A stretch of DNA of 61,964 bases, the filler included. It is 5 parts of 5 records of this genome, joined end to end, with 100 filler letters (N's around TTAATTAATTAA, not from the genome) between each part and the next. Parts side by side here need not be neighbours in the genome. Positions count along the whole stretch, not along the records: positions 1 to 25,767 come from DRR723986_4131; 4 more parts are not named here. The stretch is one strand, 5' to 3'. The notes beneath the pieces are model-generated. The model saw only the letters and a program-made list of their open reading frames with translations, ran no database searches and had not been told where the DNA came from. The position numbers and the translations under genes were made by a program. Shown here piece after piece: positions 12,922 to 55,555 of this stretch. Position 1 is the first letter of the stretch, and each line of letters opens with the position of its first letter.

Positions 12922-14523
12922 TTACGCCTCGTAGACGATCTCGCGGGTTTCGCGGAATTTCACGTCCGGGAACTTTTCGGTTACGTGACCGATTTCCCAG
13001 GCGTTCTTGAACAGGAACACCGGCTTGTCGTCACGGTCGTTGGCGATCGACATGCGGTGGCCTTCCAGCATCTTCTGCAGGGTCTGGCTGTCGGTTTCGA
13101 TCCAGCGGGCGGTGGTGTAAGGCACTGCTTCGAAGCCGATTTCAGTGCCATACTCCGCCTTCAGCCGATCCACCACGACATCAAGCTGCAGTGCGCCGAC
13201 CACGCCGACGATCCAGTTGGAGCCGAGATCCGGTTTGAAGATCTGCACCAGACCTTCTTCTGCCAGGTCCTGAAGGCCTTGGCGCATCTGTTTGACGCGC
13301 ATGGTGTCGGACAGGCGTACGCGGCGCAGGATTTCCGGTGCGAAGGCCGGCAGGCCGGTGACGTGGATGTTCTCGCCTTCGGTCAGGGTGTCGCCAACAC
13401 GCAACTGGCCATGGTTGGGAACACCGATGACGTCGCCCGGATAGGCAAGGTCGGCGATTTCCCGTTCCTCGGCAAAGAAGAAGATCGGTGCTGAGACGGC
13501 AATCTGCTTGTCGGCGCGAACGTGCTTCAGCTTCATGCCGCGCTTGAAGGTGCCGGAGCACAGGCGCACGAAGGCAATGCGGTCGCGGTGCTTGGGGTCC
13601 ATGTTTGCCTGCACCTTGAAGACGAAGCCGGTGACCTTGTCTTCCTGCGGCATGATTGTGCGCCCGCCGGTCGCCGGCTGCGAATGCGGCGGCGGGGCGA
13701 AGTCGGCGATGAAATCGAGCACTTCCTCGATGCCGTAGTCGCGCAGCGCCGAGCCGAAGAAAACCGGCGTCAGGTGCCCTTCCAGGAAGCTTTCCTTGTC
13801 GAATTCGGCGTAGCCTTCGGCGCCCAGTTCGACGTTCTCGGTCAGTTCATCCATGATCCGGTCGAACACGGTGCCGGTCAGAACCTCGTCATCAAGACCG
13901 GAAACGTCCTTGGTCTGGGTAAAGGCACCACCGCGCTCGCCGTCGGACGTGTGGAATTTCTTCTTCTGCCAGTCATAGACGCCGAAGAAGTCCGAGCCCA
14001 TCCCGACGGGCCATGTCTGCGGAGAGACGTCGAGAGCCAGTGCCTCCTGTACCTCGTCCAGAATCTCCAGCGCATGCCGGCCTTCACGATCGATCTTGTT
14101 GACGAAAGTGATGATCGGGATGTCGCGCAGGCGGCAGACTTCGAACAGCTTGCGTGTCTGGGTTTCGATACCCTTTGCAGCGTCGATCACCATGATGGCC
14201 GCATCGACGGCGGTCAGCGTGCGATAAGTATCTTCGGAGAAGTCCTCGTGGCCAGGCGTGTCGAGCAGATTGTAGACGATGCCCTTGCGCTCGAAGGTCA
14301 TGACGGAAGACGAGACGGAAATGCCGCGTTCCTGCTCGATCTTCATCCAGTCGGACCTTGCACGGCGGCGTTCGCCGCGGGCGCGCACTTGGCCCGCCGC
14401 CCGGATCGCGCCGCCTGAAAGCAGCAGCTTTTCGGTCAGGGTCGTCTTACCGGCATCCGGGTGTGAAATGATCGCAAAGGTGCGCCGGGACTGATAAGGC
14501 GCCGTGCCGTTTAGGCCAGTCAT
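12922..14523 (-). CDS. prfC: Peptide chain release factor 3
   Basis: RRTFAIISHPDAGKTTLTEKLL, DTPGHEDFSEDTYRTL, FKVQANMDPKHRDR; start ATG 14523. Confidence 0.97.
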   Translation of the reverse strand: MTGLNGTAPYQSRRTFAIISHPDAGKTTLTEKLLLSGGAIRAAGQVRARGERRRARSDWMKIEQERGISVSSSVMTFERKGIVYNLLDTPGHEDFSEDTYRTLTAVDAAIMVIDAAKGIETQTRKLFEVCRLRDIPIITFVNKIDREGRHALEILDEVQEALALDVSPQTWPVGMGSDFFGVYDWQKKKFHTSDGERGGAFTQTKDVSGLDDEVLTGTVFDRIMDELTENVELGAEGYAEFDKESFLEGHLTPVFFGSALRDYGIEEVLDFIADFAPPPHSQPATGGRTIMPQEDKVTGFVFKVQANMDPKHRDRIAFVRLCSGTFKRGMKLKHVRADKQIAVSAPIFFFAEEREIADLAYPGDVIGVPNHGQLRVGDTLTEGENIHVTGLPAFAPEILRRVRLSDTMRVKQMRQGLQDLAEEGLVQIFKPDLGSNWIVGVVGALQLDVVVDRLKAEYGTEIGFEAVPYTTARWIETDSQTLQKMLEGHRMSIANDRDDKPVFLFKNAWEIGHVTEKFPDVKFRETREIVYEA

Positions 14524-14701
14524 GAAGATCTCCTGATCCCAAATCCGGCGGGGCCGCGCAAACACGCCGGGAAAACCGGGGCGCAACCTTCCACTCAGAG
14601 CCGGACGGATTGATGTTTCGTTGGCGGAAGGTCATAGAGAGAATTCTTGAAGATTTCCAGTAGAGAATCGCCGATTTGCCCCGACAGTCCGAGGAGACCC
14701 C

Positions 14702-15256
14702 ATGAGCCGAAGCAAATGTCTGATCGTCGGCCTGGTGATGATTGCCGCCACAGCGGCCATTCTCCTGGCCATGGGGCGGATCCCGATCTGTGATTGCGGC
14801 TATGTCCTGTTGTGGACACCGGCCAGCGATTTCGCCGGTTCCTCGCAACATATCGCCGACTGGTACACGCCCTCGCATATCATCCACGGCTTCCTGTTCT
14901 ATCTGTTCCTGTGGCTGGTCTTCAGACGCAGTTCCGTCGGTGAGCGCGCGCTCGGAGCGATCTTCATCGAAGCAGCCTGGGAAATCGTCGAGAACAGCCC
15001 CTGGATCATCGACCGGTACCGCGAAGCGACCATTGCCGTTGGTTACACCGGTGACAGTGTCCTGAATTCCGTCTTCGATATACTCTGGATGCTCGCCGGC
15101 TTCTTCTTTGCCTGGCGCATGCCGGTCTGGGTCACGATCCTGGTCGGGATTGCCTTCGAACTGCTTGCGCTCTGGGTGATAAAGGACAATCTGACGCTGA
15201 ACGTTCTGATGCTGGTCTACCCGGTCGAGGCGATCAAGGTCTGGCAAGGCGGGTAG
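14702..15256 (+). CDS. DUF2585/UPF0314 family membrane protein
   Basis: [10 protein letters not shown]...[17 protein letters not shown] motif; GGAG RBS. Confidence 0.85.
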
Positions 15257-15330: not shown

Positions 15331-16011
15331 TCAGAGCTGAAACAGCTTGTGCTTTTTCAGGAGCTCGATCAGCACCTCGCGGGCATCCTGGCGATGAAGA
15401 TGGTGGCGCTGGCGTGCCGCCTGGGCGTCACCCTTGCGGATTGCGTCGAAGACCGCCCGGTGGTCTTCGTTGGACTTGACCGGCAGCGGGCGAATGTAAA
15501 GCGTCATGGCGCGTGCCCGGCGTACCTGATTGGACATCATCGAGACGATGGACTGGACACGCGAGTTGCCACCGAGGCGGACAAGCTCCGTGTGGAAGGC
15601 ATCATCGGCTATCGCCCAGGCTTCCCGGTCCTCACGCTCCAATGCATCTTCCATGGCCTCGATCGCCTGCTTGAGATCCGCAAGATCCGTTTCCGAATAG
15701 CCTTTTTCAGCGGCTTCTTCGGCAGCAAGGCTCTCCAGTTCGGTCAGGATGGCGTAGATTTCCTCCATGTCCTTCAACGACAAGGTGGCGATGCGGACAC
15801 CCTTGCGTGGTCGCACCTCCAGAAGGCCTTGCTGGGCCAGCATCAAGGTTGCCTCGCGCACCGGTGTGCGGGACATGCCAAGCCGGTCGGCAAGTTCGCT
15901 TTCGAGATGATCGGAGCCTGCCGCCAGTTCACCGTCGAAAATGAGCTGGCGGATCTGTTCCATGGCCTGGGTGGTGATGGTCTTTTGTTTCGGAGCCTCA
16001 AGCACAGTCAA
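15331..16011 (-). CDS. GntR family (FCD) transcriptional regulator
   Basis: LGMSRTPVREA HTH, FCD motifs DDAFH and EDHRAV; start placed at TTG 16011 after GGAG (ORF is open to 16068). Confidence 0.88.
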   Translation of the reverse strand: MTVLEAPKQKTITTQAMEQIRQLIFDGELAAGSDHLESELADRLGMSRTPVREATLMLAQQGLLEVRPRKGVRIATLSLKDMEEIYAILTELESLAAEEAAEKGYSETDLADLKQAIEAMEDALEREDREAWAIADDAFHTELVRLGGNSRVQSIVSMMSNQVRRARAMTLYIRPLPVKSNEDHRAVFDAIRKGDAQAARQRHHLHRQDAREVLIELLKKHKLFQL

Positions 16012-17056
16012 ACTCCCGGATTTTCTGCCCCTTGCGGTCCGACTCATAGATGGCCTGTTCGATTGCAATCACCTTCAGGTAGCTCCGCGCCTCGTTTTCC
16101 AGCGGCTTTCCATCCAGGAGACCGTCTACAACATGGCTTATCAGATTCTTGACGCAATCGCCGCCAAAGCCAGGCCAATCCTGTGCCACCAGCAGAAGAG
16201 TTTCGTCCTTGTCGCCGAAATGGCGCAAGCGCACCGAGCCGTCGCCTTTCAATGTCAGCGTTCCCCGGGTGCCCTCCAACAAAGCTTCACCAAGTGTGGT
16301 TCTGCAATTTTCGGCGGCGTGGTCCAGAAGCCTGTTGCCGTCGAAGAGCGCTCTCACCCCGTTTGAATAGTCGAAAATGAAATAGCCGGCGTCCTCTCCC
16401 TTGATGGCCGGGTTGAGCCTGCGAAGATCCGCATAGACCGCCTCGGGCTCGCCGATCAGGTAGCGAAACGTATCGATCCAGTGAACGCCGGTTTCATGGA
16501 TCAGCAACCTGGGCATTTCCTGAAAATATGGCTGCCGGTCCAGGTAGGCCTTCGGCCCCTGCCCGTCCCCTGTGCGTAGCCGGAAAGTTACCTGCAGCAA
16601 ATCGCCAAGCAGTTGCCGTTCCAGAGCCTGTCGGATTGTCCGGTACCAGGGCTGAAAACGGAAGTTTTCATGGATGACGATAATCACGCCGGCTTCTTCT
16701 GCCAGCTCGGTTGCCTTCCGGGCTTCCTCGAGCGAGGTACAGAACGGTTTCTGACAGATGATCGCCTTCACCCCCTTCCTGATTGCAAGCTCGATGGCGC
16801 TGAAATGCGTCGGCGGTGGCGTGATGATGTCCAGCAGATCGGGTTTCGCCATCTTCAGCATGCACTCCAGATCACTGAAGGCAGTCAGTCCAGTGGCCTT
16901 CGCCTTCGCGGGATCCTGATCACAGGAACCGACCAGCCGAACCCGTTTGACCCTGCGCCAGGCATCATAGTGAAACTGGGCAAAGTAGCCCGCTCCAAGA
17001 CAGGCAACGCGTAACGTGTCCGAGACGCCCAGGTCTTTTGCAGAGCCGTCGTTCAT
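15998..17056 (-). CDS. Gfo/Idh/MocA family NAD(P)-dependent sugar oxidoreductase
   Basis: GAGYFA Rossmann motif, CQKP in place of EKP, HENFRFQP, GVHWID; start ATG 17056. Confidence 0.88.
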   Translation of the reverse strand: MNDGSAKDLGVSDTLRVACLGAGYFAQFHYDAWRRVKRVRLVGSCDQDPAKAKATGLTAFSDLECMLKMAKPDLLDIITPPPTHFSAIELAIRKGVKAIICQKPFCTSLEEARKATELAEEAGVIIVIHENFRFQPWYRTIRQALERQLLGDLLQVTFRLRTGDGQGPKAYLDRQPYFQEMPRLLIHETGVHWIDTFRYLIGEPEAVYADLRRLNPAIKGEDAGYFIFDYSNGVRALFDGNRLLDHAAENCRTTLGEALLEGTRGTLTLKGDGSVRLRHFGDKDETLLLVAQDWPGFGGDCVKNLISHVVDGLLDGKPLENEARSYLKVIAIEQAIYESDRKGQKIREFDCA

Positions 17057-17166
17057 CTTTTTTCGTCCTCCCGCACACTCCTGAAATCGGCAGAAGACCC
17101 GAGGGCTTTCCCTGTTTCGAAGCGGCAATTCCATCATTGGATTTTTGATAGTCGACATTAGCGCCG

Positions 17167-17194
17167 TTGACAAGGGATTGGTTAGCGTATACGC
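17167..17194 (+). promoter_or_regulatory. Candidate sigma70 -35 box and GntR-type palindrome upstream of dctP
   Basis: TTGACA at 17167-17172; perfect palindrome GCGTATACGC at 17185-17194 over the expected -10 region. Confidence 0.4.
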
Positions 17195-17247
17195 AATCGA
17201 ATGTGTAAATTGATACGGCCTTGGAGCGGCCGTGGGAGGAGATTGAA

Positions 17248-18261
17248 ATGCTTGACAAGAAATCCTTGAGCCGCCTGCTGATGAGCGCGGCAATTCTCAC
17301 AATGGGTATGAGCGGCGCGCAGGCTGTCGAAACCTTGCGATTCAGCCATACGGACAACCCTGGCGGATCCCGTCAGCAGGCTGCGGAACTGTTTGCGGAG
17401 AAGGTCGCGGAATATACGGACGGCCGTTACGAAGTTCAGATCTTCCCGTCCGGATCGCTCGCAAACGATCCGAAAGCCATTGAACTGCTGCAGCTTGGCG
17501 GCATCGACTTCACGGTCTCGGCCACGGGCAGCTACGCCACGCACATGCCGACGCTGAACCTCACGGCCATGCCCTTCCTGGTCGACACCTACGAGCAGGG
17601 TTGGGAACTCTATGACAATTCGGAATGGCTGCAGGGAGAATTCGCCAAGCTGCCGGAAAAGGGTTTCCGGGTATTGTCGACGTGGGAAGCCGGGTTCCGC
17701 AGCTTCACTACCAACGAACCGCTGAATTCGCCAGAAGACGCCAAGTCCATGAAAATGCGCGTCTTCCCGAACGACATGATCCGCTGGTCGATGGAAGCCA
17801 TCGGTTTCCAGACGGTCGTCATGCCGATTACCGACGTCTACATTTCCATTCAGCAGGGCATCGTCAACGGCCAGGAGAACCCGGTCGACACCATCAAGTC
17901 ACTGCGGTTCTATGAAGTTGCGCCCTACATCACGCTGACACGCCACGTCTACAGCCCTCTGCCCCTGACGGTGGCCGAAAAGACCTGGCAGTCCTTTTCC
18001 GACGAAGACAAGGAAGCCGTGATGAAAGCTGCAGCCGATTCCGCAGCCTTCAGCCGGAACCTCGTCAAGAGTTCGGTCGAAAGCCAACTCACGGAAATGC
18101 AGGAATCCGGCGCCACAGTCAGCGTTCCCGATATCGCGCCGTTCCGCGAGGCGGTGCAGTCGGTCTACGCAAAAGCCAAGGATGTCTACGGCGAGGAAGC
18201 CGTCGACCAGATCCTGTCCGATGCGGCAGCGATCCGCGAAAAACTCCCGGCCCAGAACTGA
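17248..18261 (+). CDS. dctP: TRAP transporter substrate-binding protein
   Basis: Signal peptide; GFRSFTT, KMRV, QQGIVNGQENP motifs; GGGAGGAG RBS before ATG 17248. Confidence 0.92.
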   Translation: MLDKKSLSRLLMSAAILTMGMSGAQAVETLRFSHTDNPGGSRQQAAELFAEKVAEYTDGRYEVQIFPSGSLANDPKAIELLQLGGIDFTVSATGSYATHMPTLNLTAMPFLVDTYEQGWELYDNSEWLQGEFAKLPEKGFRVLSTWEAGFRSFTTNEPLNSPEDAKSMKMRVFPNDMIRWSMEAIGFQTVVMPITDVYISIQQGIVNGQENPVDTIKSLRFYEVAPYITLTRHVYSPLPLTVAEKTWQSFSDEDKEAVMKAAADSAAFSRNLVKSSVESQLTEMQESGATVSVPDIAPFREAVQSVYAKAKDVYGEEAVDQILSDAAAIREKLPAQN

Positions 18262-18383
18262 TCAGGCAACGAGATCAACGCACGGGTGATCGAGCCGGTT
18301 GCCCGTTCAACAGTTGATCGTTTCTTGTGGGTCGGAGCGCCGAACGGCGTTCGAAAGAACGCAGGGTGCTCCGGGACTCAACT

Positions 18384-18421
18384 GCCGGAACCGCACGTCA
18401 CGCGGCGGTTCCGGCCCTTTT
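18384..18421 (+). terminator. Intercistronic hairpin with T-run between dctP and dctQ
   Basis: GCCGGAACCGC (18384-18394) / GCGGTTCCGGC (18405-18415) followed by CCTTTT. Confidence 0.5.
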
Positions 18422-18437
18422 CAAAAAGAGACGACCC

Positions 18438-18968
18438 TTGGATTACCGAGATCACTATCCGGCTGCGCTTCGCTGGCTCAGTCACCTGGTCGATATATGC
18501 CTGGCGCTTGGCGGCTTTTCGATCGTCACCCTGGTGTTCTGCAACGCCTGGCTTCGCGGCTTCGCCGGCTTCGACCTCGCATGGTCGCTGGAAGTGACCA
18601 GCTTCCTGCTGCTCTGGAGCACCTTCATCGGCTGTGCGGCAGCGGTTGCCCGGGGCGCGCACATGCGCGTTACCGAAGTTGTCGAGAAACTGGTGCCGCT
18701 GACGGGTCAACGTGTCTTGTCGATCGCAATCGACGTGATCATCGTCGTCCTGCTGCTCAGCCTGATCTACACCGGTGTCAATATCTCGATCCACACCTGG
18801 GCACAGAAGACAACGGTTCTCTACTGGCCTGTCGGTCTGCTCTACGCGTCCATGCCAGCCGGCATGACACTGACCCTGATCTTCCATCTCTTCAACATGG
18901 TCTATGACCTCAAAAATCCTGTCGTTCCTCATGCAGCGCACTCAGATGGCGGCGAGGCCCTCTCATGA
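18438..18968 (+). CDS. dctQ: TRAP transporter small permease
   Basis: Four TM helices, WSLEVTSFLLLWSTFIG...GAHMRV motif; start placed at TTG 18438. Confidence 0.85.
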   Translation: MDYRDHYPAALRWLSHLVDICLALGGFSIVTLVFCNAWLRGFAGFDLAWSLEVTSFLLLWSTFIGCAAAVARGAHMRVTEVVEKLVPLTGQRVLSIAIDVIIVVLLLSLIYTGVNISIHTWAQKTTVLYWPVGLLYASMPAGMTLTLIFHLFNMVYDLKNPVVPHAAHSDGGEALS

Positions 18969-20248
18969 TCCTGATCTTCGTTGTTGCGGTCTTCCTGACC
19001 TCCGTTTTCATCGGCATTCCGCTGGTCTGGGCAATTCTGATCACCGCTGTCCTGCCGATCATCGTCTTTGATCTCGGCTATCCCTTGCAGGCGCTGTTCC
19101 TGAATTTTATCGGCGGGGTGGAGCCGAACCACTTCCTTGCGATCCCGCTCTTCATCGTCGCCGGGGAAATGATGAGCCGCGGTGGTGTCGGCCTGCGCAT
19201 CATCGGCTTTGCAAGGGCTGCCTTCGGCTTCATGGCAGGCGGGCTCGGCATGGTCGTCGTCGGCGCCTCCATGATTTTCGGCGGCATTTCGGGTTCGGCC
19301 ATTGCCGACAGTGCAGCCATCGGTTCGGTCATGATCAAGAACATGTCCCGCGAGGGCTACAACACCGCCTTCGCCGCCGGTCTGGTGGCTGCAGCCGGGA
19401 CAATCGGCATCATCATCCCACCATCCATTCCGATGCTGATCTACGGCTTTGTCGGCAATGTTTCGGTTGCCGATCTCTTCCTAGGTGGCATGGTTCCCGG
19501 CATTCTGTTCGGCGCCCTGTTCATGGCGGTTTGCTATTATGTCGGCAAGACCACCAAGTGCGACCCCGGTGGGCGCACCACGACCTTCAAGGAATTGACC
19601 AGTTCCTTCATCGGTACCGCCCCTGCCCTGTTCATGCCGATCGTGATCCTCGGCGGCATTTTCACCGGCTGGGTAACCCCGACGGAAGCCGCGGCCCTTG
19701 CCGTCGTCTACGGCCTGTTCGTCACAATTGTTGTCTACCGGGACTTCAAACTCCGCGATCTGCCGCGTCTTCTTATCGACAGCTTCGTCACCAGCGCGGT
19801 GGTGATGGTCGTGATCGGTGCAACGACAGTCCTTGGCTGGCTGATCACGCTTGAACAGATGCCCCAGATCCTGGTCGGTTTCGTGCAGGCGTTTTCAACC
19901 GGACCCTGGATGTTTCTTTTGCTGGTCAATGTCGTGCTTCTGGTCCTCGGTCTCGTTCTCGATCCGGTTCCTGCAATCCTGTTGACGGCACCGCTGTTCC
20001 TGCCGACCGCGCAAGCCTTCGGTGTCGACCCGGTCCATCTGGGTGTGATCATGACCTGCAATGTGGCCGTCGGCCTGTTCACACCTCCGGTTGGCGCAAC
20101 ACTTTATGTTGCCTCGCGGATATCCGGCGTCGGTGTTTTGTCGATCGCCCGCAACATGGCACCGCTCTACATAGCCGCAATCGCCGCCCTGCTCGCCGTG
20201 ACTTACATACCCTTCCTTTCGATGGGTATGGTGAACCTGTTCCGCTGA
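18965..20248 (+). CDS. dctM: TRAP transporter large permease
   Basis: LAIPLFI, GGISGSAIAD, IIIPPSIP, GVDPVHLG, TPPVG motifs. Confidence 0.93.
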   Translation: MILIFVVAVFLTSVFIGIPLVWAILITAVLPIIVFDLGYPLQALFLNFIGGVEPNHFLAIPLFIVAGEMMSRGGVGLRIIGFARAAFGFMAGGLGMVVVGASMIFGGISGSAIADSAAIGSVMIKNMSREGYNTAFAAGLVAAAGTIGIIIPPSIPMLIYGFVGNVSVADLFLGGMVPGILFGALFMAVCYYVGKTTKCDPGGRTTTFKELTSSFIGTAPALFMPIVILGGIFTGWVTPTEAAALAVVYGLFVTIVVYRDFKLRDLPRLLIDSFVTSAVVMVVIGATTVLGWLITLEQMPQILVGFVQAFSTGPWMFLLLVNVVLLVLGLVLDPVPAILLTAPLFLPTAQAFGVDPVHLGVIMTCNVAVGLFTPPVGATLYVASRISGVGVLSIARNMAPLYIAAIAALLAVTYIPFLSMGMVNLFR

Positions 20249-20258
20249 GGAGAAGAAC

Positions 20259-20549
20259 ATGTATGCCGTAACGGTGGTGTTTCAGATCAAGGCCGAGGCG
20301 GTGGAGGATTTTCTGCCGCTCATGATCGCAAACGCCGAAGCGTCCCTGAAGGACGAACCCGGATGCAGGCAATTCGACGTCTGCACCGACCCTGATCGCC
20401 CCGGCGATGTGTTTCTCTATGAACTTTATGACGATGCCGACGCCTTTCAGGCGCATCTGCAAACCCCTCACTTCAAGTCGTTCGATGCAAAGGTTGCCGG
20501 GATGATCGCGCAGAAAACGGTCCGAACCTACACGAAGGTGGTCTCATGA
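20259..20549 (+). CDS. ABM/LsrG-like dimeric alpha-beta barrel protein (putative monooxygenase or isomerase)
   Basis: 96 aa; EPGCRQFDV...FLYELY...AFQAHLQTPHF ABM pattern. Confidence 0.85.
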   Translation: MYAVTVVFQIKAEAVEDFLPLMIANAEASLKDEPGCRQFDVCTDPDRPGDVFLYELYDDADAFQAHLQTPHFKSFDAKVAGMIAQKTVRTYTKVVS

Positions 20550-21343
20550 GCCCCTGGCAGGTTTTCGCGGTCAAATATGCCGACAGGAATGCGCGCACGC
20601 GCAAGGACAGTTTCCTGTTCGACGACAACCACGACCAGCCACACGAGATGGATTACTTCATTTGGGTGCTGCGGCGGCAGGACGAGATCATTCTGGTCGA
20701 CACAGGTTACGACGGCGAGGAAGGTACGCGGCGCGGCCGTCCTGTCCGGCTCAATCCGGTAGAGGCCCTGGCCCCTCTCGGCATTGAACCTGAGGCCGTG
20801 AAGACCATCATCGTCACCCATTTGCATTATGACCACGCGGGCGGCTTGAAGCATTTTCCCAATGCCACCATCCATCTGCAGGCAGCGGAAATGGCTTTCG
20901 CCACAGGTCCCTGCATGTGCCAGGGCGCGATGAAGGCTCCCTACACCGCGGACCATGTCTGTGAAGCTGTGCAGAGGCTCTATTCCGGGCGGGTAATCTT
21001 TCACGAAGGAGATGGCGAAGTCCGGGAAGGACTTACAGTTCATCGCATTGGCGGGCACAGCAAGGGATTGCAGGCTGTTCGTGTACTGACAGAAGCCGGC
21101 TGGATGTGCCTGGCTTCCGACGCGGCCCACTACTACGAGAATTTCCTGGAAGCCAAACCGTTTCCGATCGTGGTCGACATGCAGGACATGCTGGATGGTT
21201 TTGGCACCATTCAGCACCTTGCCAGCTCGATAGACCTTGTTGTGCCGGGACATGACCCCCTGGTGCGAACGCTCTTTCCGCAACACGGCCCGGATCACAT
21301 CTTCCGTCTCGACCGTGGTCCGCTCAAGGGGATCCGCTCATGA
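20546..21343 (+). CDS. Metallo-beta-lactamase fold lactonase (AHL-lactonase-like family)
   Basis: VDTG, THLHYDHAG (HxHxDH), GHSKG, ASDAAH, PGHD motifs. Confidence 0.88.
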   Translation: MSPWQVFAVKYADRNARTRKDSFLFDDNHDQPHEMDYFIWVLRRQDEIILVDTGYDGEEGTRRGRPVRLNPVEALAPLGIEPEAVKTIIVTHLHYDHAGGLKHFPNATIHLQAAEMAFATGPCMCQGAMKAPYTADHVCEAVQRLYSGRVIFHEGDGEVREGLTVHRIGGHSKGLQAVRVLTEAGWMCLASDAAHYYENFLEAKPFPIVVDMQDMLDGFGTIQHLASSIDLVVPGHDPLVRTLFPQHGPDHIFRLDRGPLKGIRS

Positions 21344-22572
21344 AGCTGGGCGTGATCGCGGATGATTTTACCGGAGCCTCCGACATTGCATTGATGCTGT
21401 CGGAAGGCGGCATGACGGCGGCTCAATATGTCGGTGTGCCCGATGTTCCGGCACTTGCGTCGGTGGACGCCGGCATCATCAGTCTGAAGTCCCGAACGAT
21501 CCCAGCTGCAGAGGCAGTTGCCCAGTCCCTGCGAGCCTGCGACTGGCTGACCGCTCAGGGATGCAAGCAGATTGTCTTCAAGATCTGTTCGACGTTCGAT
21601 TCGACCGACGAAGGCAATATCGGCCCTGTGGCGGAAGCCCTTGCCGACAGGCTTGGCGAGACATGTGTGATCGTCTGCCCGGCCTTTCCGGAAAACGGAC
21701 GAACCGTCTACCAGGGACATCTCTTCGTCGCAGACAGGCTTTTGAGCGAAAGCGGCATGCGCCACCATCCGTTGACGCCAATGGGCGACCCGGACATCCG
21801 GCGGGTGCTGGCTCGTCAGACGTCCTGGGCAGTCGGTCATGTCTCCCTCGATCACGTGGCAGATGGTCCGGCCGCAATCAATCTCGCCTGCCCTGCCGAC
21901 GGCAAGTCGATGGTGATTGTGGATGCAATCCGCAACGATGATCTTGCAACCATTGGGCGGGCAATCGCGGCACGAAAGCTTCTTGTCGGAGGCTCGGGCT
22001 TGGCACTCGGCTTGCCCAAGAACTTTGGCCACGCGCCTGCGGCAGCGAACTGGACCGGACATTCGGGCAAAGCCGTGGTTCTGTCCGGTTCATGTTCAAT
22101 GGCAACTCGCACCCAGGTCGCGAGCTACAAGGCCATTGCGCCCTCGCGTGAACTGAACGTCGATGACATCATGGCAAAGACACTGTCGGTGCAGGAAATC
22201 GCCGGCTGGGTACTTCACCAGGACGCATCGCCCCTGCTTTATTCCTCCGCCGACCCGGAGGTGGTGGGTGCTGCCCAACAAAAACACGGCAGGGAAAAAA
22301 GCGCGACGGCGATTGAGCAGTTTTTTTCCGATCTGGCGGCGTCGCTGTTCAACGCCGGTGTCAGCCGAATGGTGGTCGCCGGCGGCGAAACGTCAGGGGC
22401 CGTTGTTTCCGGTCTCGGGGCAAACACGCTGGATATCGGTCCGAAGATCGCGCCGGGTGTTCCCGCGCTCAAGGTGAGCGGTCAGCCGCTGGCGCTGGCG
22501 CTGAAATCCGGCAACTTCGGTGGCCCGAACTTCTTCTCCGAGGCGCTCAGCGTTCTGGAGACAAGCCGATGA
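21340..22572 (+). CDS. otnK: 3-oxo-tetronate kinase (four-carbon acid sugar kinase, DUF1537)
   Basis: GVIADDFTGASD, KICSTFDST..GNIGP, GSCSMAT, GGETSGAV, LKSGNFG. Confidence 0.88.
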   Translation: MKLGVIADDFTGASDIALMLSEGGMTAAQYVGVPDVPALASVDAGIISLKSRTIPAAEAVAQSLRACDWLTAQGCKQIVFKICSTFDSTDEGNIGPVAEALADRLGETCVIVCPAFPENGRTVYQGHLFVADRLLSESGMRHHPLTPMGDPDIRRVLARQTSWAVGHVSLDHVADGPAAINLACPADGKSMVIVDAIRNDDLATIGRAIAARKLLVGGSGLALGLPKNFGHAPAAANWTGHSGKAVVLSGSCSMATRTQVASYKAIAPSRELNVDDIMAKTLSVQEIAGWVLHQDASPLLYSSADPEVVGAAQQKHGREKSATAIEQFFSDLAASLFNAGVSRMVVAGGETSGAVVSGLGANTLDIGPKIAPGVPALKVSGQPLALALKSGNFGGPNFFSEALSVLETSR

Positions 22573-23216
22573 GCGAAAGCGCAACCACCCGCGAACAGAT
22601 TTGCCTGATGGCAAAATCGATGTTCGACCGTGGTTTGACACATGGATCGACCGGCAATCTCTCCGTTCGTCTGTCGGATGGCACATTGCTCGTTACCCCG
22701 ACCGGCTCCTCCATGGGGTTTCTGGACCCGGCCCGGATCAGCCATCTTTCTGCCCACGGCGAACTGCTTTCGGGTGACAGGCCGACGAAGGAAATCCCGC
22801 TTCACACGGCCTTTTACGAGACCCGCCATTCGGCAGGTGCGGTCGTGCATCTTCATTCGTGCCACTCGGTTGCGCTTTCCCTGTTGCCGGAGATCGATCC
22901 GGACAACGTTCTGCCACCCCTGACGGCCTATGGGATCATGCAGCTAGGCAAGGTGAAGCTTCTGCCGTTTTTCGTGCCGGGAGATCCGGCAATGGGAGAC
23001 GCGGTCCGAGGACTTGCAGGCCGTCGTTCTGCCGTTCTGCTGGCCAACCACGGGCCCGTTGTTGCCGGCCGGGATCTGGCTGCCGCCGTCCATGCCATGG
23101 AAGAGCTGGAAGCAACAGCCAGGCTTGCCCTTCTGCTTCGCGGCACTGCCGCAACGGCGCTCAATCCGGACCAGATCGGCCGGATCGTCGAGCGCTACGA
23201 CGTTGATTGGATTTGA
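22569..23216 (+). CDS. otnC: 3-oxo-tetronate 4-phosphate decarboxylase (class II aldolase fold)
   Basis: GSTGNLS, PTKEIPLH, VVHLHS, LLANHG metal motifs; coupled to otnK. Confidence 0.85.
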   Translation: MSESATTREQICLMAKSMFDRGLTHGSTGNLSVRLSDGTLLVTPTGSSMGFLDPARISHLSAHGELLSGDRPTKEIPLHTAFYETRHSAGAVVHLHSCHSVALSLLPEIDPDNVLPPLTAYGIMQLGKVKLLPFFVPGDPAMGDAVRGLAGRRSAVLLANHGPVVAGRDLAAAVHAMEELEATARLALLLRGTAATALNPDQIGRIVERYDVDWI

Positions 23217-23227
23217 GGAACAGTCCC

Positions 23228-24343
23228 ATGAAAATTGCCCTGATAAAAGGTGACGGTATTGGCGTCGATGTGGCGGAAGCAGCCATTGCCGTGCTGGAAA
23301 CAGCCTTGAAGCACACGGGAGAACCCGCGCCCCGCTATGACGAGATCCAGGCAGGGGCGGGTTACTTCAAGGAGACTGGCCTCGACATCGAAGACGGCGG
23401 AGAGGAACGCGCGGGGCTTGCCGATGCAATTTTCCTTGGGGCCATCGGCCTTCCCTCGATCCGGCATGCAAACGGCACGGAGATCTCGCCGCATTTGCGC
23501 CTGCGCGATCGCTTTGGGCTTTATGCGGGTGTTCGCCCGGTCAAAGCCTATCCCAACGCACCGCAAAGGCTCGCCGATCCGCGCGCTGCCGATATCGATC
23601 TCGTTATCCTGCGGGAATCTACCGAAGGGCTGTTCTACTCTGCAGCAGCACACAAGCGCAGCCTCGTAGTCAATGATGACGAAGTTCAGGATGTCTTGCG
23701 CATCACGCGCAAAACCACCACCAAGCTGCATCGCTTTGCATTCAACCTTGCCCGCAAACGGCGCGAGCGCGGCCATCTGGGCAAACTCACCTGCGTCGAC
23801 AAGGCGAATGTGTTCACCTCTCTGGCCTTCTTCCGCCAGATCTTCGACGAAGTGAAATCGGAATTTGCCGACGTGCCTGTCGGCTACAATTACGTCGACG
23901 CACAAGCGCTTGACCTTGTGCGCAAGCCCTGGGAGTTCGACGTTCTGGTGATGGAAAACATGTTCGGCGACATCCTTTCGGACCTTGCCGGTGGCCTGGT
24001 GGGTGGCATGGGCATGGCCGCCTGTGGGGAGATCGGCGACACCACCGGATTGTTTCAGCCTGCCCACGGCAGCGCCCCCGACATCATGGGAGAAGACAAG
24101 GCCAACCCGCTGGCCGCGATCTTGAGTGCTGCGCTGATGCTGGACTATCTCGCCGAGAAGTTGGACAAGCCCTCCCTTGCCGATGCCGCAGACCTGATCA
24201 ACGGCGCGGTCGACACCGGCTTTCAGGAAAATGTGTTGCGACCGATGGAATTCGGCGGTGACATGGGAACCAGGGCGGTCACGAACCAACTGCTTACGCT
24301 TATCGGATCATCGACTGCGATCAGAAGGTCTGCCAGCGCCTAG
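23228..24343 (+). CDS. Beta-decarboxylating dehydrogenase (isocitrate/isopropylmalate/tartrate family)
   Basis: [44 protein letters not shown] motifs; start ATG 23228. Confidence 0.9.
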
Positions 24344-24371: not shown

Positions 24372-25406
24372 TCACTTCAGCTTGCGGGAAATGCCACCAC
24401 AGCTCTCGCGCACGATGAGATCCCCGTGGAGCAGATGAGTGCGCGTTTCCAGGGACCGGTTCGCAAGGCGATCGAGCAGGATTGTCATGGCCTTTTCGCC
24501 GATATGTTGCCGGGGTTGGCGGATTGTCGTCAATCCGGGTGTGAAATTGTTGGCAAAGGGAATGTCGTCGAAACCAAGCACGGAGAAATCTTCCGGGACG
24601 CGGTAGCCACGCAGTTGAAGCGCCGAGATGACCCCAATGGCGGTGTTGTCGTTGAAACAGAAGAAAGCGGTCGGCAGGTCGTCCTTGATGAACAGCCGTT
24701 CGACGGCGGCACGCCCGCTCTCGCTGGAGCCGTCGCCCTCCACGCGCCAGTCGCGCAGTGCCTCGGGCGATTCCTTCAAGCCTTGCAAGTAACCGGAATG
24801 GCGCAGATCGCTGCGTATGTCAGCCGGCCCGCCAGAGATGTAGGTGATCCTGCGGTGCCCAAGCGAGATCAGGTATTCGGTCGCGACTTTGGAGGCCGCA
24901 ACATCATCCACTCCGACGTAGCTGATTTCGGGGTTCGAGACCGGACGCTCGGTCGCAACGATCGGCGGCAGGTTGGTGAGCGGTGTTTGTGGCTGTCCGG
25001 CAACCGGAATATGTCCTGTCAGCAAGACAAGCCCGTCGGCCATGCCCGTCGACAGGAAACGCAGGTAGTTCTGCTCCAGTCCGCTGGTACCTTCGGTGTT
25101 GCCGATGAGGACACCATAACCACGGTCGTTTGCCGCCTTTTCCAGCCCTGTCAGAATGCCGGCAAAGTTTGGATCAGCAATGGAAGACGCCAGCACCAGC
25201 ACCATCTGTGAGCGCTGCATGCGCAGGTTCTGCGCCATGGCGTTGGCGGTGTAGCCGGTCCGGGCAATGGCGGCCGTAACCTTCTTGCGCGTGCTCTCGG
25301 CAACCTTCTCCGGCGAGCGCAAGGCCCTGCTGACGGTCGCGATGGATACGCCCGCCAGTTTCGCAACGTCTTCAATGGTCGCCGGCCGCTCGCCCGGTTC
25401 GCTCAT
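24372..25406 (-). CDS. LacI family transcriptional regulator
   Basis: [42 protein letters not shown]. Confidence 0.95.
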
Positions 25407-26041: not shown

Positions 26042-27748
26042 GTGGTGATGCTAGAAGCTGGTGAAATTCTCCACCGTCGCGGTTTGCTCGACAGCGAGCA
26101 ACTGAAGACACTGCGCGAACAGTCTCTGGCGGCCGGTGACCTGGTCAACTCCGCCATCGGCCAAGGCATGTGCGACGAAGAGCACGCGCTCCGAGCCCTT
26201 GGTGACGAACTGGGCATGGAGTACGTTGACCTTCGCAATGCCGATGTTGACCTCGAAGTTGTCGGCAGCTTTCCGCAAAAGCTGATCTATCGCCACTCAC
26301 TCTTTCCTCTTTCCAGGGTCAACGGTTCATTGACCGTTGCAACCAGCGATCCGCTGGACGTGTACGCGCTCGACGAAGCCAGCGCCGCGACTGGATTGAC
26401 CATTGTCCCGGTCGTCGCCGAGAAAGCCGAAATCGCCCGGCTGATGAAAAAGCACTTGGGCGTCGGTTCGGAGACGGTCGAAGGACTGTTGGCGGCCAAG
26501 GAAGAAGAGGGTGATATCCAACTGCTGGAGGATATCGAGACCGATGGCAGCGAACTGAGCGAGATGGCTCAGGAAGCATCGGTTGTTCGCCTGGTGAATG
26601 AAATCCTCGTCGAAGCGATCGACTCGCGGGCGAGTGACGTGCACGTTGAATCGCAGTCCGGTGGACTGGTAATTCGCTACCGCATCGACGGCATCCTGCA
26701 TGTGCAGCCCGTTCCACCGGAGATCAACCGGTTCCAAGCTGCCATCATTAGCCGCTTGAAGATTATGGCCAAGCTGAATATCGCCGAAAAGCGATTGCCT
26801 CAGGACGGTCGAATCAAGTTGAAGGTGCATGGTCGTGAGATCGACATTCGTCTGTCGGTGATCCCGATGATCCACGGCGAAGGCTTGGTGATGCGTATTC
26901 TCGACAAGGGGGCGATGAAATTCGACCTCCAAGGGCTCGGGATGGATCCGCACACCTACAAGATCTTTAGCAAACTGATCCGCTTACCGCACGGCATCAT
27001 CCTGGTAACCGGGCCGACTGGTTCTGGTAAGACCACAACGCTTTACAGTTCCCTGCTCGAGATCCGCAGCCCAGAGAACAAAATTATTACCACCGAGGAT
27101 CCGGTCGAATACCAGCTTGATGGTATTAACCAGATTCAAGTGCACAGCAAAATTGGTTTGACGTTTGCCGCGTCGCTGCGAAGTATTCTACGTCATGACC
27201 CGGACATTGTGCTGGTCGGTGAAATTCGGGACCAAGAGACGGCGGAAAATGCGATCCAAGCATCGTTGACCGGTCACATGGTCTTTAGCACGCTGCACAC
27301 CAACGACGCCGCCGGTGCATTCACCCGTATGGTCGACATGGGCGTTGAACCGTTCTTGGTTTCAAGTACCGTCGAAGGCATCATGGCGCAGCGGTTGATT
27401 CGTCGCTTGTGCAATGAATGCAAGGAAGCGTACACGCCGAACCGGGACGATTTGCCAGAGGATTTCCCGTGGGAGAAACTCGAGGGCAAGCAGTTGTATC
27501 GAAGTGTTGGATGCCGAACATGCCGTCAGGTTGGTTACGCTGGGCGGATGGGTATCTATGAACTGCTAGTTACCAACGAAGACATTAAAGCACTTGCGCA
27601 CGAACGTGTGAGTACTTGGGACATCAAGCAGGCGGCCCTGAAGGCTGGCATGCGAACCTTACGAATGGATGCGTGGGACAAGGCCATTGCAGGTGGCACC
27701 ACCATTGACGAAGTACTGCGGGTCACCAAGGGAGACCGAATCGCCTAG
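26042..27748 (+). CDS. gspE: Type II secretion/pilus assembly ATPase GspE/PilB family
   Basis: ASDVHVE, RLPQDGR, Walker A GPTGSGKT, TEDPVEY, LRHDPD, STLHTND, CxxC zinc motifs. Confidence 0.95.
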   Translation: MVMLEAGEILHRRGLLDSEQLKTLREQSLAAGDLVNSAIGQGMCDEEHALRALGDELGMEYVDLRNADVDLEVVGSFPQKLIYRHSLFPLSRVNGSLTVATSDPLDVYALDEASAATGLTIVPVVAEKAEIARLMKKHLGVGSETVEGLLAAKEEEGDIQLLEDIETDGSELSEMAQEASVVRLVNEILVEAIDSRASDVHVESQSGGLVIRYRIDGILHVQPVPPEINRFQAAIISRLKIMAKLNIAEKRLPQDGRIKLKVHGREIDIRLSVIPMIHGEGLVMRILDKGAMKFDLQGLGMDPHTYKIFSKLIRLPHGIILVTGPTGSGKTTTLYSSLLEIRSPENKIITTEDPVEYQLDGINQIQVHSKIGLTFAASLRSILRHDPDIVLVGEIRDQETAENAIQASLTGHMVFSTLHTNDAAGAFTRMVDMGVEPFLVSSTVEGIMAQRLIRRLCNECKEAYTPNRDDLPEDFPWEKLEGKQLYRSVGCRTCRQVGYAGRMGIYELLVTNEDIKALAHERVSTWDIKQAALKAGMRTLRMDAWDKAIAGGTTIDEVLRVTKGDRIA

Positions 27749-51540: not shown

Positions 51541-52935
51541 ATGAGTAACACAAAAGCCGTCTATTCGCCCTTCGATGGACATCATATTGCCGACGTGCCG
51601 ATGGTGGACGCCGCGCAAGCTGAAGTTATGATGCAGGAAGCCTACGAGCTTTCGCGCGACCGCGACCGCTGGCTCAGCAAACCTGAACGCATCGAAATCC
51701 TGCGCCGCGCCGAGCAGATTATGAACAGCCAGATTGAAGAGCTGACAAATCTAATGGCCGAAGAAGGCGGCAAACCCTACAAAGACTCCAAGGTTGAAGC
51801 CCATCGCGCTGTCGACTGCATTCGCGTAGCTATTGAAACACTGCGTACCGACGCCGGCGAAGAGATTCCCATGGGCGGAACAAATCGCGCACTTAACCGC
51901 ATTGCTTTTACACAGCACGAGCCAATTGGTGTCGTAATGGCAATCAGCGCGTTTAACCATCCCTTTAACCTGATTGCACATCAGGTGGCGCCTGCAATCG
52001 CCGTCGGCTGTCCCGTAATTGTTAAGCCGGCGTCCAGCACTCCGCGCTCATGTTTTAAGTTCGTTGAAATCCTGCGTGAAGCCGGTTTGCCCGAGGAATG
52101 GTGCCGTGTAGCAGTCTGTGCCAACGATGTCGCGCAGAGTCTGGCAACGGACAAACGCACAGCGTTTTTAACATTTATTGGTTCCGCACGCATTGGATGG
52201 ATGCTCAAATCCAAACTGGCTCCCGGCACGCGTTGTGCGCTGGAACATGGTGGTGTGGCTCCCGCAATTGTTGAGGCCGATGCAGATATTGACGACGCAT
52301 TACCTCTGCTGGCCGTTGGCGGAATGTATCATGCCGGTCAGGTCTGCGTTTCCGTGCAGCGCCTTTACGTGCATGCCGACATATGCGACAAAGTTAGCTC
52401 CGGCCTGGTCGATATTGTTAACAAAATGAAAGTTGGCGATCCACTCGATCCTGCAACAGACGTTGGTCCATTAATTTCTACCGGCGATGTTAATCGCGTT
52501 GACGAATGGGTTAAAAACGCAGTTGCCAAGGGCGCTAAACTGCTTTGCGGTGGCGAGAAAATTAACGACTACTGTTATGCGCCCACGATTGTTCTCGATC
52601 CGCCTGACGATTGTGAACTGTCACAGGATGAAGTCTTTGGCCCCGTAATCTGCATATATTCCTACACGGATCGCATGCAGGCCATCAAACGCGCAAACTC
52701 TCTCGACGTTGAATTCCAGGCCTCGGTCTTCACAAAAGATATCGACGTTGCCATGGATACTTCACAACGACTTAACGCAGCCGCGGTCATGATCAACGAT
52801 CATACAGCCTTCCGCGTAGATTGGATGCCGTTTGCAGGTCACAATGTTTCGGGTTATGGCACCGGTGGCATTCCCTACTCAATGGAAGACATGCAAAAGC
52901 GCAAGATGACGGTCATTCGCTCCAAGCTGATTTGA
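51541..52935 (+). CDS. Aldehyde dehydrogenase family protein
   Basis: FNHP, VKPA, FIGS, LEHGG, GQVCVS catalytic Cys, EVFGP. Confidence 0.93.
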   Translation: MSNTKAVYSPFDGHHIADVPMVDAAQAEVMMQEAYELSRDRDRWLSKPERIEILRRAEQIMNSQIEELTNLMAEEGGKPYKDSKVEAHRAVDCIRVAIETLRTDAGEEIPMGGTNRALNRIAFTQHEPIGVVMAISAFNHPFNLIAHQVAPAIAVGCPVIVKPASSTPRSCFKFVEILREAGLPEEWCRVAVCANDVAQSLATDKRTAFLTFIGSARIGWMLKSKLAPGTRCALEHGGVAPAIVEADADIDDALPLLAVGGMYHAGQVCVSVQRLYVHADICDKVSSGLVDIVNKMKVGDPLDPATDVGPLISTGDVNRVDEWVKNAVAKGAKLLCGGEKINDYCYAPTIVLDPPDDCELSQDEVFGPVICIYSYTDRMQAIKRANSLDVEFQASVFTKDIDVAMDTSQRLNAAAVMINDHTAFRVDWMPFAGHNVSGYGTGGIPYSMEDMQKRKMTVIRSKLI

Positions 52936-52962
52936 GAGTTGTTAACAACAGCGTCTTAATAC

Positions 52963-53000
52963 AAAACGGCTCTACGGCTTTAACTGTAGAGTCGTTTTTT
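52963..53000 (+). terminator. Rho-independent terminator
   Basis: AAAACGGCTCTACGG-loop-CTGTAGAGTCGTTTTTT stem with G-U pairs and a T tract. Confidence 0.8.
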
Positions 53001-53527
53001 TATGGGAACTGGTCCAAGCACCCATTTTGCGAATTAATCGACAAAGCCTTTTCTCGCAAGAGCAGAATCAAACCATTGATCCACGCTTTATGCCACCTCA
53101 TACTTCGGGGCATAGCTTTTCTGATGTTTTTGTTTGTTGTTGTTTCTGTAGTTAACAATAATCGATCCAAGCCGCATTTCTGCTGCTCGTTCGGGCGTGG
53201 AATCCAGACAATTATTGTGGCTCAATTGCGCCGCGTTTCATGAAGCTACAATCCTGTCCCGAATTCGGCGTGTCACGATTCATAGGCTCAACCATAGTGG
53301 CTTTGTCAGGTGCAACCTCAAGCACAGTTTCTTTATCGACCGTCTTATTCCTCACTGTGATTATCTGTTCAGTCTGCAAAACTGTGAACAAACGTTCCAG
53401 CACCTCACTACCTACCAAATTATTGCAAGCTCAGATTGAGCTGGTACAGATTCAGTATGTCCTCAAATTCTAGTCGTTTTAGTGTTCGCACCCAGACTGC
53501 CAGTGGTGTTCACAATCCAGATTAGCA

Positions 53528-54524: not shown

Positions 54525-54672
54525 TCACTACCTTGCGTAACAGACTTGTTCTTTTTGTTAGCTCTTACGCGTTAAGATAGTAATCGCCCTCGTTTTGAGA
54601 AATTCTGTCAACTAAACACGAACTGCATCAGTAGTCGGTTAACAAGGCGGAGTTTCTTCACTTGTTCCCTCC

Positions 54673-55017: not shown

Positions 55018-55070
55018 GTATTAAACATACTGTTTCGCCAAAAACAGAGCACAAAACAACCGCGCTCAAC

Positions 55071-55526: not shown

Positions 55527-55555
55527 AATTCAGCTACCTGCTTCCTGACTCGATT

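Follow-up and report, generated by a model that had tools for sequence, protein, structure and literature searches.

The DNA analysed here, referred to as the window, is 61,964 nucleotides long, filler included, and joins five parts from five records of the genome of a marine bacterium, the first of which (positions 1 to 25,767) comes from DRR723986_4131. Positions 15331-24343 hold ten genes: a GntR/FCD regulator and a Gfo/Idh/MocA oxidoreductase (hereafter Gfo) are divergent from a series that encodes a tripartite ATP-independent periplasmic (TRAP) transporter (dctPQM), an ABM-fold protein, a metallo-beta-lactamase-fold hydrolase (MBL), the kinase OtnK, the decarboxylase OtnC and a dehydrogenase of the Iso_dh family. 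Genes were called from open reading frames (ORFs) together with Pfam and NCBIfam profile searches of this region, which confirmed the gene list, strands and positions that an original prediction had given for all ten. We suggest that the cluster is probably a self-contained operon for an imported sugar acid, controlled by the GntR protein, that enters the tetronate pathway at 3-oxo-tetronate without LtnD/DenD or OtnI.

The 3-oxo-tetronate kinase OtnK, a member of the DUF1537 family (21340-22572, plus strand), scored 549.1 bits against NF043035 (cut-off 350) and matched Pfam SBD_N (4e-72) and NBD_C (2e-37). The 3-oxo-tetronate 4-phosphate decarboxylase OtnC, of class II aldolase fold (22569-23216, plus strand), scored 298.6 bits against NF043034 (cut-off 250), with the next-best NCBIfam family at 95 bits. 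Judged at the equivalog level, both are predicted to be bona fide members of their families, and OtnK is predicted to phosphorylate 3-oxo-tetronate at O4. The earlier claim that the cluster ends in a genuine OtnK/OtnC pair therefore stands, both proteins lying above the NCBI curated cut-offs. The kinase scores as OtnK and not as OiaK, for which it reached 114 bits against a cut-off of 700. Among the cluster enzymes, no other protein reached an NCBIfam equivalog cut-off.

The remaining genes were assigned at the family level. The regulator (15331-16068, minus strand; start codon uncertain) combines a GntR domain (5e-15) with an FCD ligand domain (7e-25) and reached none of the NCBIfam equivalog cut-offs; it is the probable repressor of both divergent units. 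Gfo (15998-17056, minus strand) is an NAD(P) oxidoreductase with the Pfam GFO_IDH_MocA and C-terminal domains, and its longest ORF spans 15998-17293, but the Rossmann domain begins at residue 94 of that frame and the probable ATG lies at 17056. The TRAP transporter consists of the solute-binding protein DctP (17248-18261; Pfam 2e-74; longest ORF from 17221, ATG at 17248), the small membrane subunit DctQ (18327-18968; 1e-22) and the large membrane subunit DctM (18965-20248; 5e-107; TIGR00786 at 395 bits against a cut-off of 268). These three genes lie on the plus strand, as do those for the 96-residue ABM-fold protein (20259-20549; Pfam ABM 1e-20), for MBL, which carries an HLHYDH motif (20546-21343; Lactamase_B 8e-19), and for the Iso_dh-family protein (23228-24343; Pfam Iso_dh 2e-77). 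The longest ORF of the last gene begins at 23207, but 23228 is the probable start because the database protein P0001 has 371 residues. Tight coupling of the genes, also part of the original prediction, is evident from the 4-base overlaps at dctQ/dctM, ABM/MBL, MBL/otnK and otnK/otnC and from the roughly 10 bases that separate dctM from ABM and otnC from Iso_dh.

Conservation of the cluster and the occurrence of LtnD and OtnI

We used the Iso_dh protein as a query against one-per-species genomes, which yielded 451 relatives, and fetched the best 80 loci (71-87% identical). These came from Roseibium/Labrenzia/Stappia, Hoeflea, many Rhodobacteraceae, Kiloniella, Terasakiella and some gammaproteobacterial metagenome-assembled genomes (MAGs). 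The ORF caller was crude and displaced some true genes by opposite-strand ORFs; hence, neighbours within 9 kb of Iso_dh were counted by tblastn with identity thresholds (at least 35% for GntR), and short contigs make these counts lower bounds. All ten genes were present in the order and orientation of the window in 28 of the 80 loci, while three further loci were cut by contig ends and five had the window-type cluster minus otnK and otnC. The individual counts were 54 for Gfo, 55 for ABM, 51 each for MBL and GntR, 43 for the orthologous TRAP transporter, 45 for OtnK and 39 for OtnC, and ABM was present in 40 of the 45 loci that held OtnK. A lactonase was found in 56 loci, namely MBL in 51 and an unrelated SMP-30/gluconolactonase (SGL) type in 5, and Gfo, a lactonase and ABM occurred together in 49.

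The same set recurred in other gene orders and with other transporters. In Rhodobacteraceae, MBL was divergent from (GntR)-Iso_dh-(OtnK-OtnC)-Gfo-ABM; in Kiloniella and Terasakiella, GntR-Gfo-SGL lactonase-DctMQP was divergent from Iso_dh-OtnK-aldolase-fold-ABM; and in Stappia stellulata an ABM-OtnK-OtnC unit was located beside TRAP-GntR-Iso_dh. All nine kinases tested from other cluster types passed the OtnK cut-off, with 497-610 bits. The gene combination is thus conserved, and the arrangement is no chance juxtaposition. In the three Kiloniella and Terasakiella loci L061, L065 and L072, OtnK (559-592 bits) was followed by a class II aldolase-fold protein other than OtnC; the one in L065 was closest to the L-fuculose-phosphate aldolase subfamily (216 bits, cut-off 264) and scored 77 bits with the OtnC model.

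As a sample not biased by the query, we examined 301 Rhodobacteraceae genomes drawn evenly, in which Iso_dh was found in 37 (E<=1e-100), OtnK in 111 and an ABM homologue in 74. OtnK was present in 34 of the 37 genomes with Iso_dh and in 77 of the 264 without it (Fisher p = 1e-13), and ABM in 34 of 37 and 40 of 264, respectively (p = 7e-21), although both p values overstate the association since related genomes are not independent. Iso_dh was directly followed by otnK in 14 of the 37. One genome of this sample, G262, had no OtnK at E<=1e-90, and 670 kb separated its Iso_dh from its ABM homologue on a contig of more than 1.6 Mb.

ABM was also located about 1 kb from OtnK in 10 of the 40 genomes that had ABM but no window-type Iso_dh. 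We fetched eight of these, and all eight contained ABM-MBL-OtnK-OtnC divergent from Iso_dh-Gfo, with GntR after Gfo in seven. The Iso_dh proteins of this second clade were 43-48% identical to the window protein and the other proteins 52-81%. Since the six-enzyme set is found in the second clade too, it is older than either Iso_dh clade.

No match to LtnD or OtnI was obtained by tblastn in the 62-kb window with the Roseibium proteins as queries, and each was located near Iso_dh in only one of the 80 loci, the same one in both cases (L063). These searches for LtnD and OtnI support the earlier statement that the cluster has no LtnD, DenD-type or OtnI gene, DenD's own model not being among those searched. 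L063, a 9-kb contig of a Planktotalea MAG, was alone in having Iso_dh and MBL as immediate neighbours of a canonical LtnD-OtnK-OtnC-OtnI set; an ABM gene was not visible there, but the contig ends just upstream.

The presence of these genes elsewhere in the genome was examined in relatives of the window. In Labrenzia alba (G006) and Hoeflea poritis (G009) the sole OtnK was the one in the cluster, and a stand-alone gene of the OtnI/Hyi (hydroxypyruvate isomerase) family was located amid unrelated genes. LtnD over the cut-off was absent from both of these genomes and from G010, G139, G028, G309 and G200, and the OtnI family gave no match at E<=1e-10 in three cluster-bearing genomes, G139 (a single contig of 3.2 Mb), G028 and G309. 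The original prediction had named as its weak points ltnD and otnI genes located elsewhere and co-regulated, and a gene combination that is not conserved; neither was found in G006, G009, G139, G028 and G309. Two genomes with the window-type cluster minus otnK and otnC (G001, G002) carried a canonical LtnD-OtnK-OtnC-OtnI set elsewhere, and three Rhodobacteraceae with an Iso_dh locus lacking OtnK (G003-G005) carried OtnK at another locus, next to OtnI and/or LtnD where genes had been called. Taken together, we put the probability that the cluster forms one pathway feeding OtnK and OtnC without LtnD or OtnI at roughly 0.85. We also considered genome-level presence of OtnI as a discriminator and rejected it, since the model also catches hydroxypyruvate isomerases: 207 of the 301 genomes matched at 1e-60 and 18 passed the cut-off.

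The upstream enzymes and the transporter

The segment RESTEGLF of the window Iso_dh aligns to RELTGGLY in isopropylmalate dehydrogenase (IPMDH) of Bacillus and to RENTEGLY in homoisocitrate dehydrogenase (HICDH) of Thermus. A Phe (Phe136 in P0001 numbering) thereby replaces the catalytic Tyr of the family, seven residues after the third Arg. In isocitrate dehydrogenase (IDH), IPMDH and HICDH, this Tyr acts as the general acid, giving a proton to C3 once decarboxylation has taken place, and the active site of the family further comprises a substrate Arg triad, a catalytic Lys and three metal-binding Asp. The Arg triad, the Lys and the Asp triad are all retained in the window protein, and P0001 shares the pattern R,R,R,K,D,D,D with each of the eight second-clade sequences. 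The Phe was found in all six first-clade sequences aligned (the window protein included) and in all eight of the second clade. The residue next to it is Y, H or F in different sequences, which makes it unlikely that the tyrosine has shifted. Given this conserved Phe, the label of beta-decarboxylating dehydrogenase that the last gene had been given is unsafe.

For a broader comparison we aligned 103 full-length sequences, comprising the window protein, the eight second-clade proteins and, from a library of 1.8 billion proteins clustered at 50% identity, the nearest cluster representatives. The Tyr position was occupied by Phe in 30 and by Tyr in 64 of these. In a midpoint-rooted FastTree phylogeny, the Phe sequences formed one clade together with six sequences that carry another residue. 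The window protein shares its fold, Arg triad, Lys and metal-binding Asp triad with tartrate dehydrogenase, D-malate dehydrogenase, IPMDH and homoisocitrate dehydrogenase, but differs from them in the Phe, in a specificity loop three residues shorter than that of Bacillus IPMDH, and in its sugar-acid operon context. It stayed below the equivalog cut-offs of AksF2 (250.6 against 540 bits), tartrate dehydrogenase (221.6 against 470) and leuB (219.4 against 353). We propose that it is a (2R)-hydroxy-(di)acid dehydrogenase, and action on a diacid is favoured because the Arg, Lys and Asp residues are kept as in the malate-type diacid enzymes.

Deeper members of the Phe clade, represented by 80 loci from soil and freshwater metagenomes, retain RE(S/N)TEGLF. 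An OtnI/Hyi-family gene was divergently adjacent in 13 of these loci; L105 had Gfo-Iso_dh-OtnK-OtnC, and L124 had OtnK-OtnC-ABM-Iso_dh. The neighbourhoods otherwise yielded no coherent pathway; genes seen there encode ABC transporters of the peptide type, a CoA-transferase, an enoyl-CoA hydratase and an alcohol dehydrogenase. A large soil and freshwater branch (L096-L175; for example L123, L134, L146 and L173) had peptide/opine-type ABC genes nearby and no OtnK; its pathway is probably different from that of the window cluster, and also undescribed.

The closest solved structure to Gfo is 5UHW, an uncharacterised Agrobacterium oxidoreductase (4e-38); in one of the two papers citing the codes of this set (5UHW-5UIB), 5UI9 served as a search model. 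Gfo may act as a 1-dehydrogenase on a lactol (hemiacetal), with a gamma-lactone as its product. Among NCBIfam families and PDB structures, MBL comes closest to the lactonases AidB, AiiA, AttM and GcL, all below their cut-offs, and its HLHYDH follows the HxHxDH motif; from these resemblances we propose that it acts as a gamma-lactonase. Since an oxidoreductase and a lactonase are found in every cluster type, including those in which MBL is exchanged for an unrelated lactonase, the lactone intermediate looks integral to the pathway. An identification of Gfo with ApnO was rejected, ApnO being a ketol-acid reductoisomerase (KARI)-like protein of about 275 residues in the available part of PMC13753588.

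The nearest named relative of the ABM protein is the isomerase LsrG (NF007791, 49.6 bits against a cut-off of 135; PDB 3QMQ, 8e-10), the phospho-DPD isomerase of autoinducer-2 (AI-2) processing. The two are alike in having an ABM fold of about 96 residues, and LsrG shifts a keto and a hydroxyl group by way of an enediol, the kind of reaction required at the OtnI step. A Glu and a His of the window protein align to identical residues in 3QMQ, which we take from their numbering to be the active-site residues of LsrG; the pair is widespread in the ABM family. The window protein differs from LsrG in that only about one third of the residues are identical, no lsr genes are present and its substrate would be unphosphorylated. 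The ABM protein probably takes the place of OtnI in function, as a ketol/enediol isomerase that needs no cofactor and puts the keto group at C3; this would give a role to a protein that had been left without one. Further support comes from the deeper Phe-clade genes located beside OtnI/Hyi-like isomerases, which suggest that the products of the clade need a keto-shift, supplied here by ABM.

DctP retains the residues that align to Arg152, Arg173 and Asn213 of 4P47, and Arg/Arg/Asn is the carboxylate-binding set of TRAP solute-binding proteins according to the available part of PMC11668362. The best NCBIfam matches of DctQ and DctM were the 2,3-diketo-L-gulonate TRAP subunits YiaM and YiaN, far below the cut-offs. 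Among the second-clade loci, two (L089, L093) carried a TctC-TctB-TctA tripartite tricarboxylate transporter (TTT) between the two units, a third (L095) had a gap of the same size, and a fourth (L090) had the orthologous TRAP transporter. The TRAP and TTT transporters, together with the carboxylate-binding residues of DctP, indicate that the imported substrate is an acid. If a Gfo-type enzyme is to convert this acid to a lactone, it would be an aldehydo-acid in its lactol form; a furanose lactol with a free carboxylate needs at least five carbons and OtnK and OtnC use a C4 acid, so that one carbon would have to leave after the lactonase and before the kinase. The smallest substrate that would fit is a C5 uronic-acid-like sugar, either linear or 3-C-carboxy-branched.

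A possible route to 3-oxo-tetronate and its alternatives

The four-step pathway that handles L-threonate or D-erythronate reportedly goes back to Zhang et al. 2016 (PNAS), and the oxidative routes for D-apiose are said to come from Carter et al. 2018. As given in the available parts of PMC13753588 and PMC12994016, the four-step pathway consists of LtnD or DenD, OtnI, OtnK and OtnC. The window cluster shares with it the last two enzymes at the equivalog level, dihydroxyacetone phosphate (DHAP) as the end product and, often, a TRAP transporter, but replaces the beta-hydroxyacid-dehydrogenase-type LtnD/DenD and the TIM-barrel OtnI with Gfo, a lactonase, the Tyr-less Iso_dh and ABM. A second route uses Ltn3D, a short-chain dehydrogenase/reductase (SDR) that acts directly at C3 as an L-threonate 3-dehydrogenase feeding OtnK and OtnC; the accessible text of PMC12994016 places it in sugar-acid "funnel" clusters of marine Rhodobacteraceae. 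This bypass is like the window cluster in that a non-canonical upstream enzyme dispenses with OtnI, but it is described there as a single SDR, whereas the cluster has no SDR and four conserved upstream enzymes. In a third, ApnO with OtnK and OtnC converts D-erythronate to DHAP without OtnI, as set out in the part of PMC13753588 at hand. The ApnO and D-apiose routes, as far as they are presented there, share the logic of an aldose dehydrogenase, a lactonase, a 3-oxo-acid-forming enzyme, a DUF1537 kinase and a class II aldolase-fold decarboxylase, but ApnO has a KARI-like Rossmann-plus-knotted fold while the window enzyme has the Iso_dh fold, and no ApnO-like gene was recognised in the cluster. 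None of the three printed routes (LtnD/DenD plus OtnI, Ltn3D, ApnO) uses an Iso_dh, ABM, MBL or Gfo protein. A literature search found no description of this gene combination, the supplementary neighbourhood data of Zhang 2016 and Carter 2018, which might show it, lying outside its coverage. The lower half formed by OtnK and OtnC is known, and the chemistry of the Tyr-less Iso_dh clade may be new.

In the scheme that we infer, for the order of the Gfo, MBL, Iso_dh and ABM steps and the roles of these four enzymes as much as for the substrate, an acid with a free aldehyde in lactol form would be taken up by the TRAP transporter, or by the TTT system in some relatives. Gfo would oxidise the lactol to a gamma-lactone, which MBL would open to a polyhydroxy dicarboxylate. 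The Tyr-less Iso_dh would then oxidise the (2R)-hydroxyl, and one carboxyl would be lost either in Iso_dh, leaving an enediol, or right after the next step, in which the LsrG-like ABM protein would fix the keto group at C3 to yield 3-oxo-tetronate. Phosphorylation at O4 by OtnK and decarboxylation by OtnC would give DHAP and CO2. In a branched version, Iso_dh would remove a carboxyl from a diacid built on a tartrate-like core and leave the enediol, and the lost Tyr could avoid fixing the 2-oxo isomer. In a linear version, a pentarate would be oxidised to a 2-oxo acid that ABM would shift to the 3-oxo acid, a beta-keto acid from which CO2 would readily be lost.

The order of events in the original prediction (oxidation, ring opening, loss of a carboxyl, phosphorylation, decarboxylation) is retained as the leading model on the basis of the lactonase and Gfo in every cluster type and the carboxylate-type transporters. 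Its suggestion of an apiose- or ascorbate-derived substrate fared less well, as nothing that was tested points to either in particular. For the whole chain, from a uronic-like C5 acid through the lactone and the diacid to 3-oxo-tetronate and DHAP, we consider the chance to fall slightly short of even. If it is true, it would be a fourth and mechanistically different route to 3-oxo-tetronate, and would provide the first function for an Iso_dh clade without the catalytic Tyr and another case of an ABM-fold isomerase. The identity of the substrate could point to an overlooked metabolite passed between algae and bacteria. A known finishing pair with four conserved, uncharacterised upstream enzymes makes for a well-defined and directly testable gap in marine carbon cycling. 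A bolder version, which we regard as doubtful, is that the Phe-for-Tyr clade represents a new enzyme class that would oxidise 3-hydroxy-malate-type diacids and release the decarboxylated enediol, for a partner isomerase (ABM or OtnI/Hyi-like) to ketonise to a 2-hydroxy-3-oxo product; with Gfo and the lactonase, it would make up a new route by which a C5 acid sugar, branched or uronic, is catabolised. This sugar would then be an abundant, unrecognised marine metabolite, and its users would include up to about a quarter of the sampled Rhodobacteraceae species and most Roseibium genomes fetched.

Several observations weigh against this interpretation. No partner gene was present near Iso_dh in 16 of the 80 loci, with partner genes located elsewhere in at least some of these genomes (for example G085), and OtnK was not found at E<=1e-90 in 3 of the 37 Rhodobacteraceae genomes with Iso_dh (G080, G195, G262). 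Kiloniella and Terasakiella pair OtnK with a FucA-like aldolase-fold protein below the OtnC cut-off, and some Rhodobacteraceae loci adjoin CUT1-type ABC sugar transporters, which would fit a neutral substrate. Genomes that have both a canonical L-threonate cluster and a window-type cluster also fit a simple stereoisomer specialisation. The likeness of ABM to LsrG is weak, as the bit score indicates, and the shared Glu and His are common in the ABM family, so that the protein could instead be mutarotase-like or an oxygenase. We know of no Iso_dh-family enzyme without the Tyr, and the chemistry of such an enzyme is not readable from its relatives. To our knowledge, the best-fitting compounds (penturonic acids, pentarates and a 3-C-carboxy-tetrose) are not common marine metabolites.

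The alternative that survives best, unlikely as we think it, is a plain tetronate route, in which the TRAP transporter would import L-threonate or D-erythronate, Iso_dh would be a non-decarboxylating 2-dehydrogenase, ABM would replace OtnI, and Gfo and the lactonase would serve as a side entrance for tetroses or tetrono-1,4-lactones. It is simpler than the diacid scheme and is consistent with the equivalog-level OtnK and OtnC, the carboxylate-type transporters, an ABM protein nearest to the isomerase LsrG and the absence of OtnI from the clusters (bar L063) and from three whole genomes. The loss of a Tyr that serves the decarboxylation half-reaction would also be in keeping with it. Two one-enzyme bypasses of LtnD plus OtnI were shown in 2026, Ltn3D in PMC12994016 and ApnO in PMC13753588. 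A mere side entrance is, however, hard to reconcile with the occurrence of Gfo and a lactonase in every cluster type, even where the lactonase is a non-homologous replacement. The two genomes searched in which the cluster has no otnK and otnC (G001, G002) retain its TRAP, ABM, MBL, Iso_dh and Gfo genes although a canonical L-threonate cluster is already present, so that a plain tetronate route would make these clusters redundant. The Arg triad, which binds two carboxylates in relatives, is fully conserved. Nor do we know of any characterised Iso_dh-family enzyme that acts on a monocarboxylate.

A route from the ascorbate family appears quite improbable. Here, an acidic enediol lactone, either ascorbate or erythroascorbate, or the dehydro or diketo product derived from it would be oxidised by Gfo and opened by MBL, as UlaG does with ascorbate 6-phosphate, after which ABM would rearrange the 2,3-dione and Iso_dh would decarboxylate it oxidatively to a 3-oxo acid on which OtnK and OtnC would act. 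By our reasoning this gives a role to all six enzymes and the redox count fits; the best matches of DctQ and DctM, far under the cut-offs, were YiaM and YiaN. LsrG reportedly acts on a 2,3-dione, and a PdxA-family enzyme is said to decarboxylate 2-carboxy-L-lyxonate in the ascorbate pathway of Cupriavidus. OtnK and OtnC take C5 and C6 3-oxo acids in vitro according to the accessible part of PMC12994016. On the other hand, Iso_dh enzymes bind an alpha-carboxylate at the carbinol carbon, which the substrate of this decarboxylation would not have. C6 ascorbate would end as a tetrulose phosphate, for which no further processing enzymes were recognised among the annotated neighbours, and the annotated neighbourhoods showed none of the partners known from the ascorbate pathway, be it cytochrome b561, a WD40-like protein or an amidohydrolase. 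That the cluster consists of two unrelated adjoining units, with otnK-otnC inserted into a TRAP/ABM/MBL/Iso_dh/Gfo module for another acid, would fit the five loci without otnK and otnC and the 16 without partners nearby, but is very improbable in view of an association that holds in at least four gene orders and across Iso_dh clades 43-48% identical, of OtnK being present in 34 of the 37 genomes that carry Iso_dh, compared with 77 of the other 264, of otnK/otnC elsewhere in both searched genomes whose clusters lack them, and of the 4-base start/stop overlaps across MBL/otnK/otnC.

The divergent spacer and the flanking regions

The spacer between Gfo and dctP is about 190 bases long and contains GCGTATACGC, a perfect 10-bp palindrome at 17185-17194 in the divergent promoter region, with one match in the window against 0.03 expected. 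The palindrome NNGTATACNN was found within the Gfo/DctP spacer of 19 of the 24 orthologous loci examined. On this pattern, GCGTATACGC is a plausible candidate operator for the GntR/FCD regulator. A promoter and terminator scan gave no more sites than in shuffled sequence.

Contigs spanning the cluster with 95-99% identity were present in four RNA-library runs from four studies. The contigs of one run (X17) left 17002-17206 uncovered, and those of another (X14) broke at 17051/17058, within the divergent spacer, while a single X17 contig covered ABM through otnC. These contigs provide a weak hint at expression, contigs alone being no proof of transcription or operon structure.

Upstream of the cluster, an ORF of 266 residues (14447-15247, minus strand) is located between prfC and the GntR gene. 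It overlaps the end of the annotated prfC ORF, gave no match in Pfam or NCBIfam and may not be a gene. In another part of the window, at 52000-56000, the G+C content falls to 0.43-0.47 as compared to about 0.58 elsewhere, with a strongly negative GC skew, and this segment may be a horizontally acquired island. Downstream of the cluster, a LacI-family regulator (24372-25406, minus strand) is convergent with Iso_dh and 89-94% identical in most Roseibium loci. After the regulator, most of those loci carry an ABC sugar transporter, a TIM-barrel gene resembling xylose isomerase and a further gene of the Gfo type, in place of which the window has a PilB/GspE-type ATPase (26042-27748).

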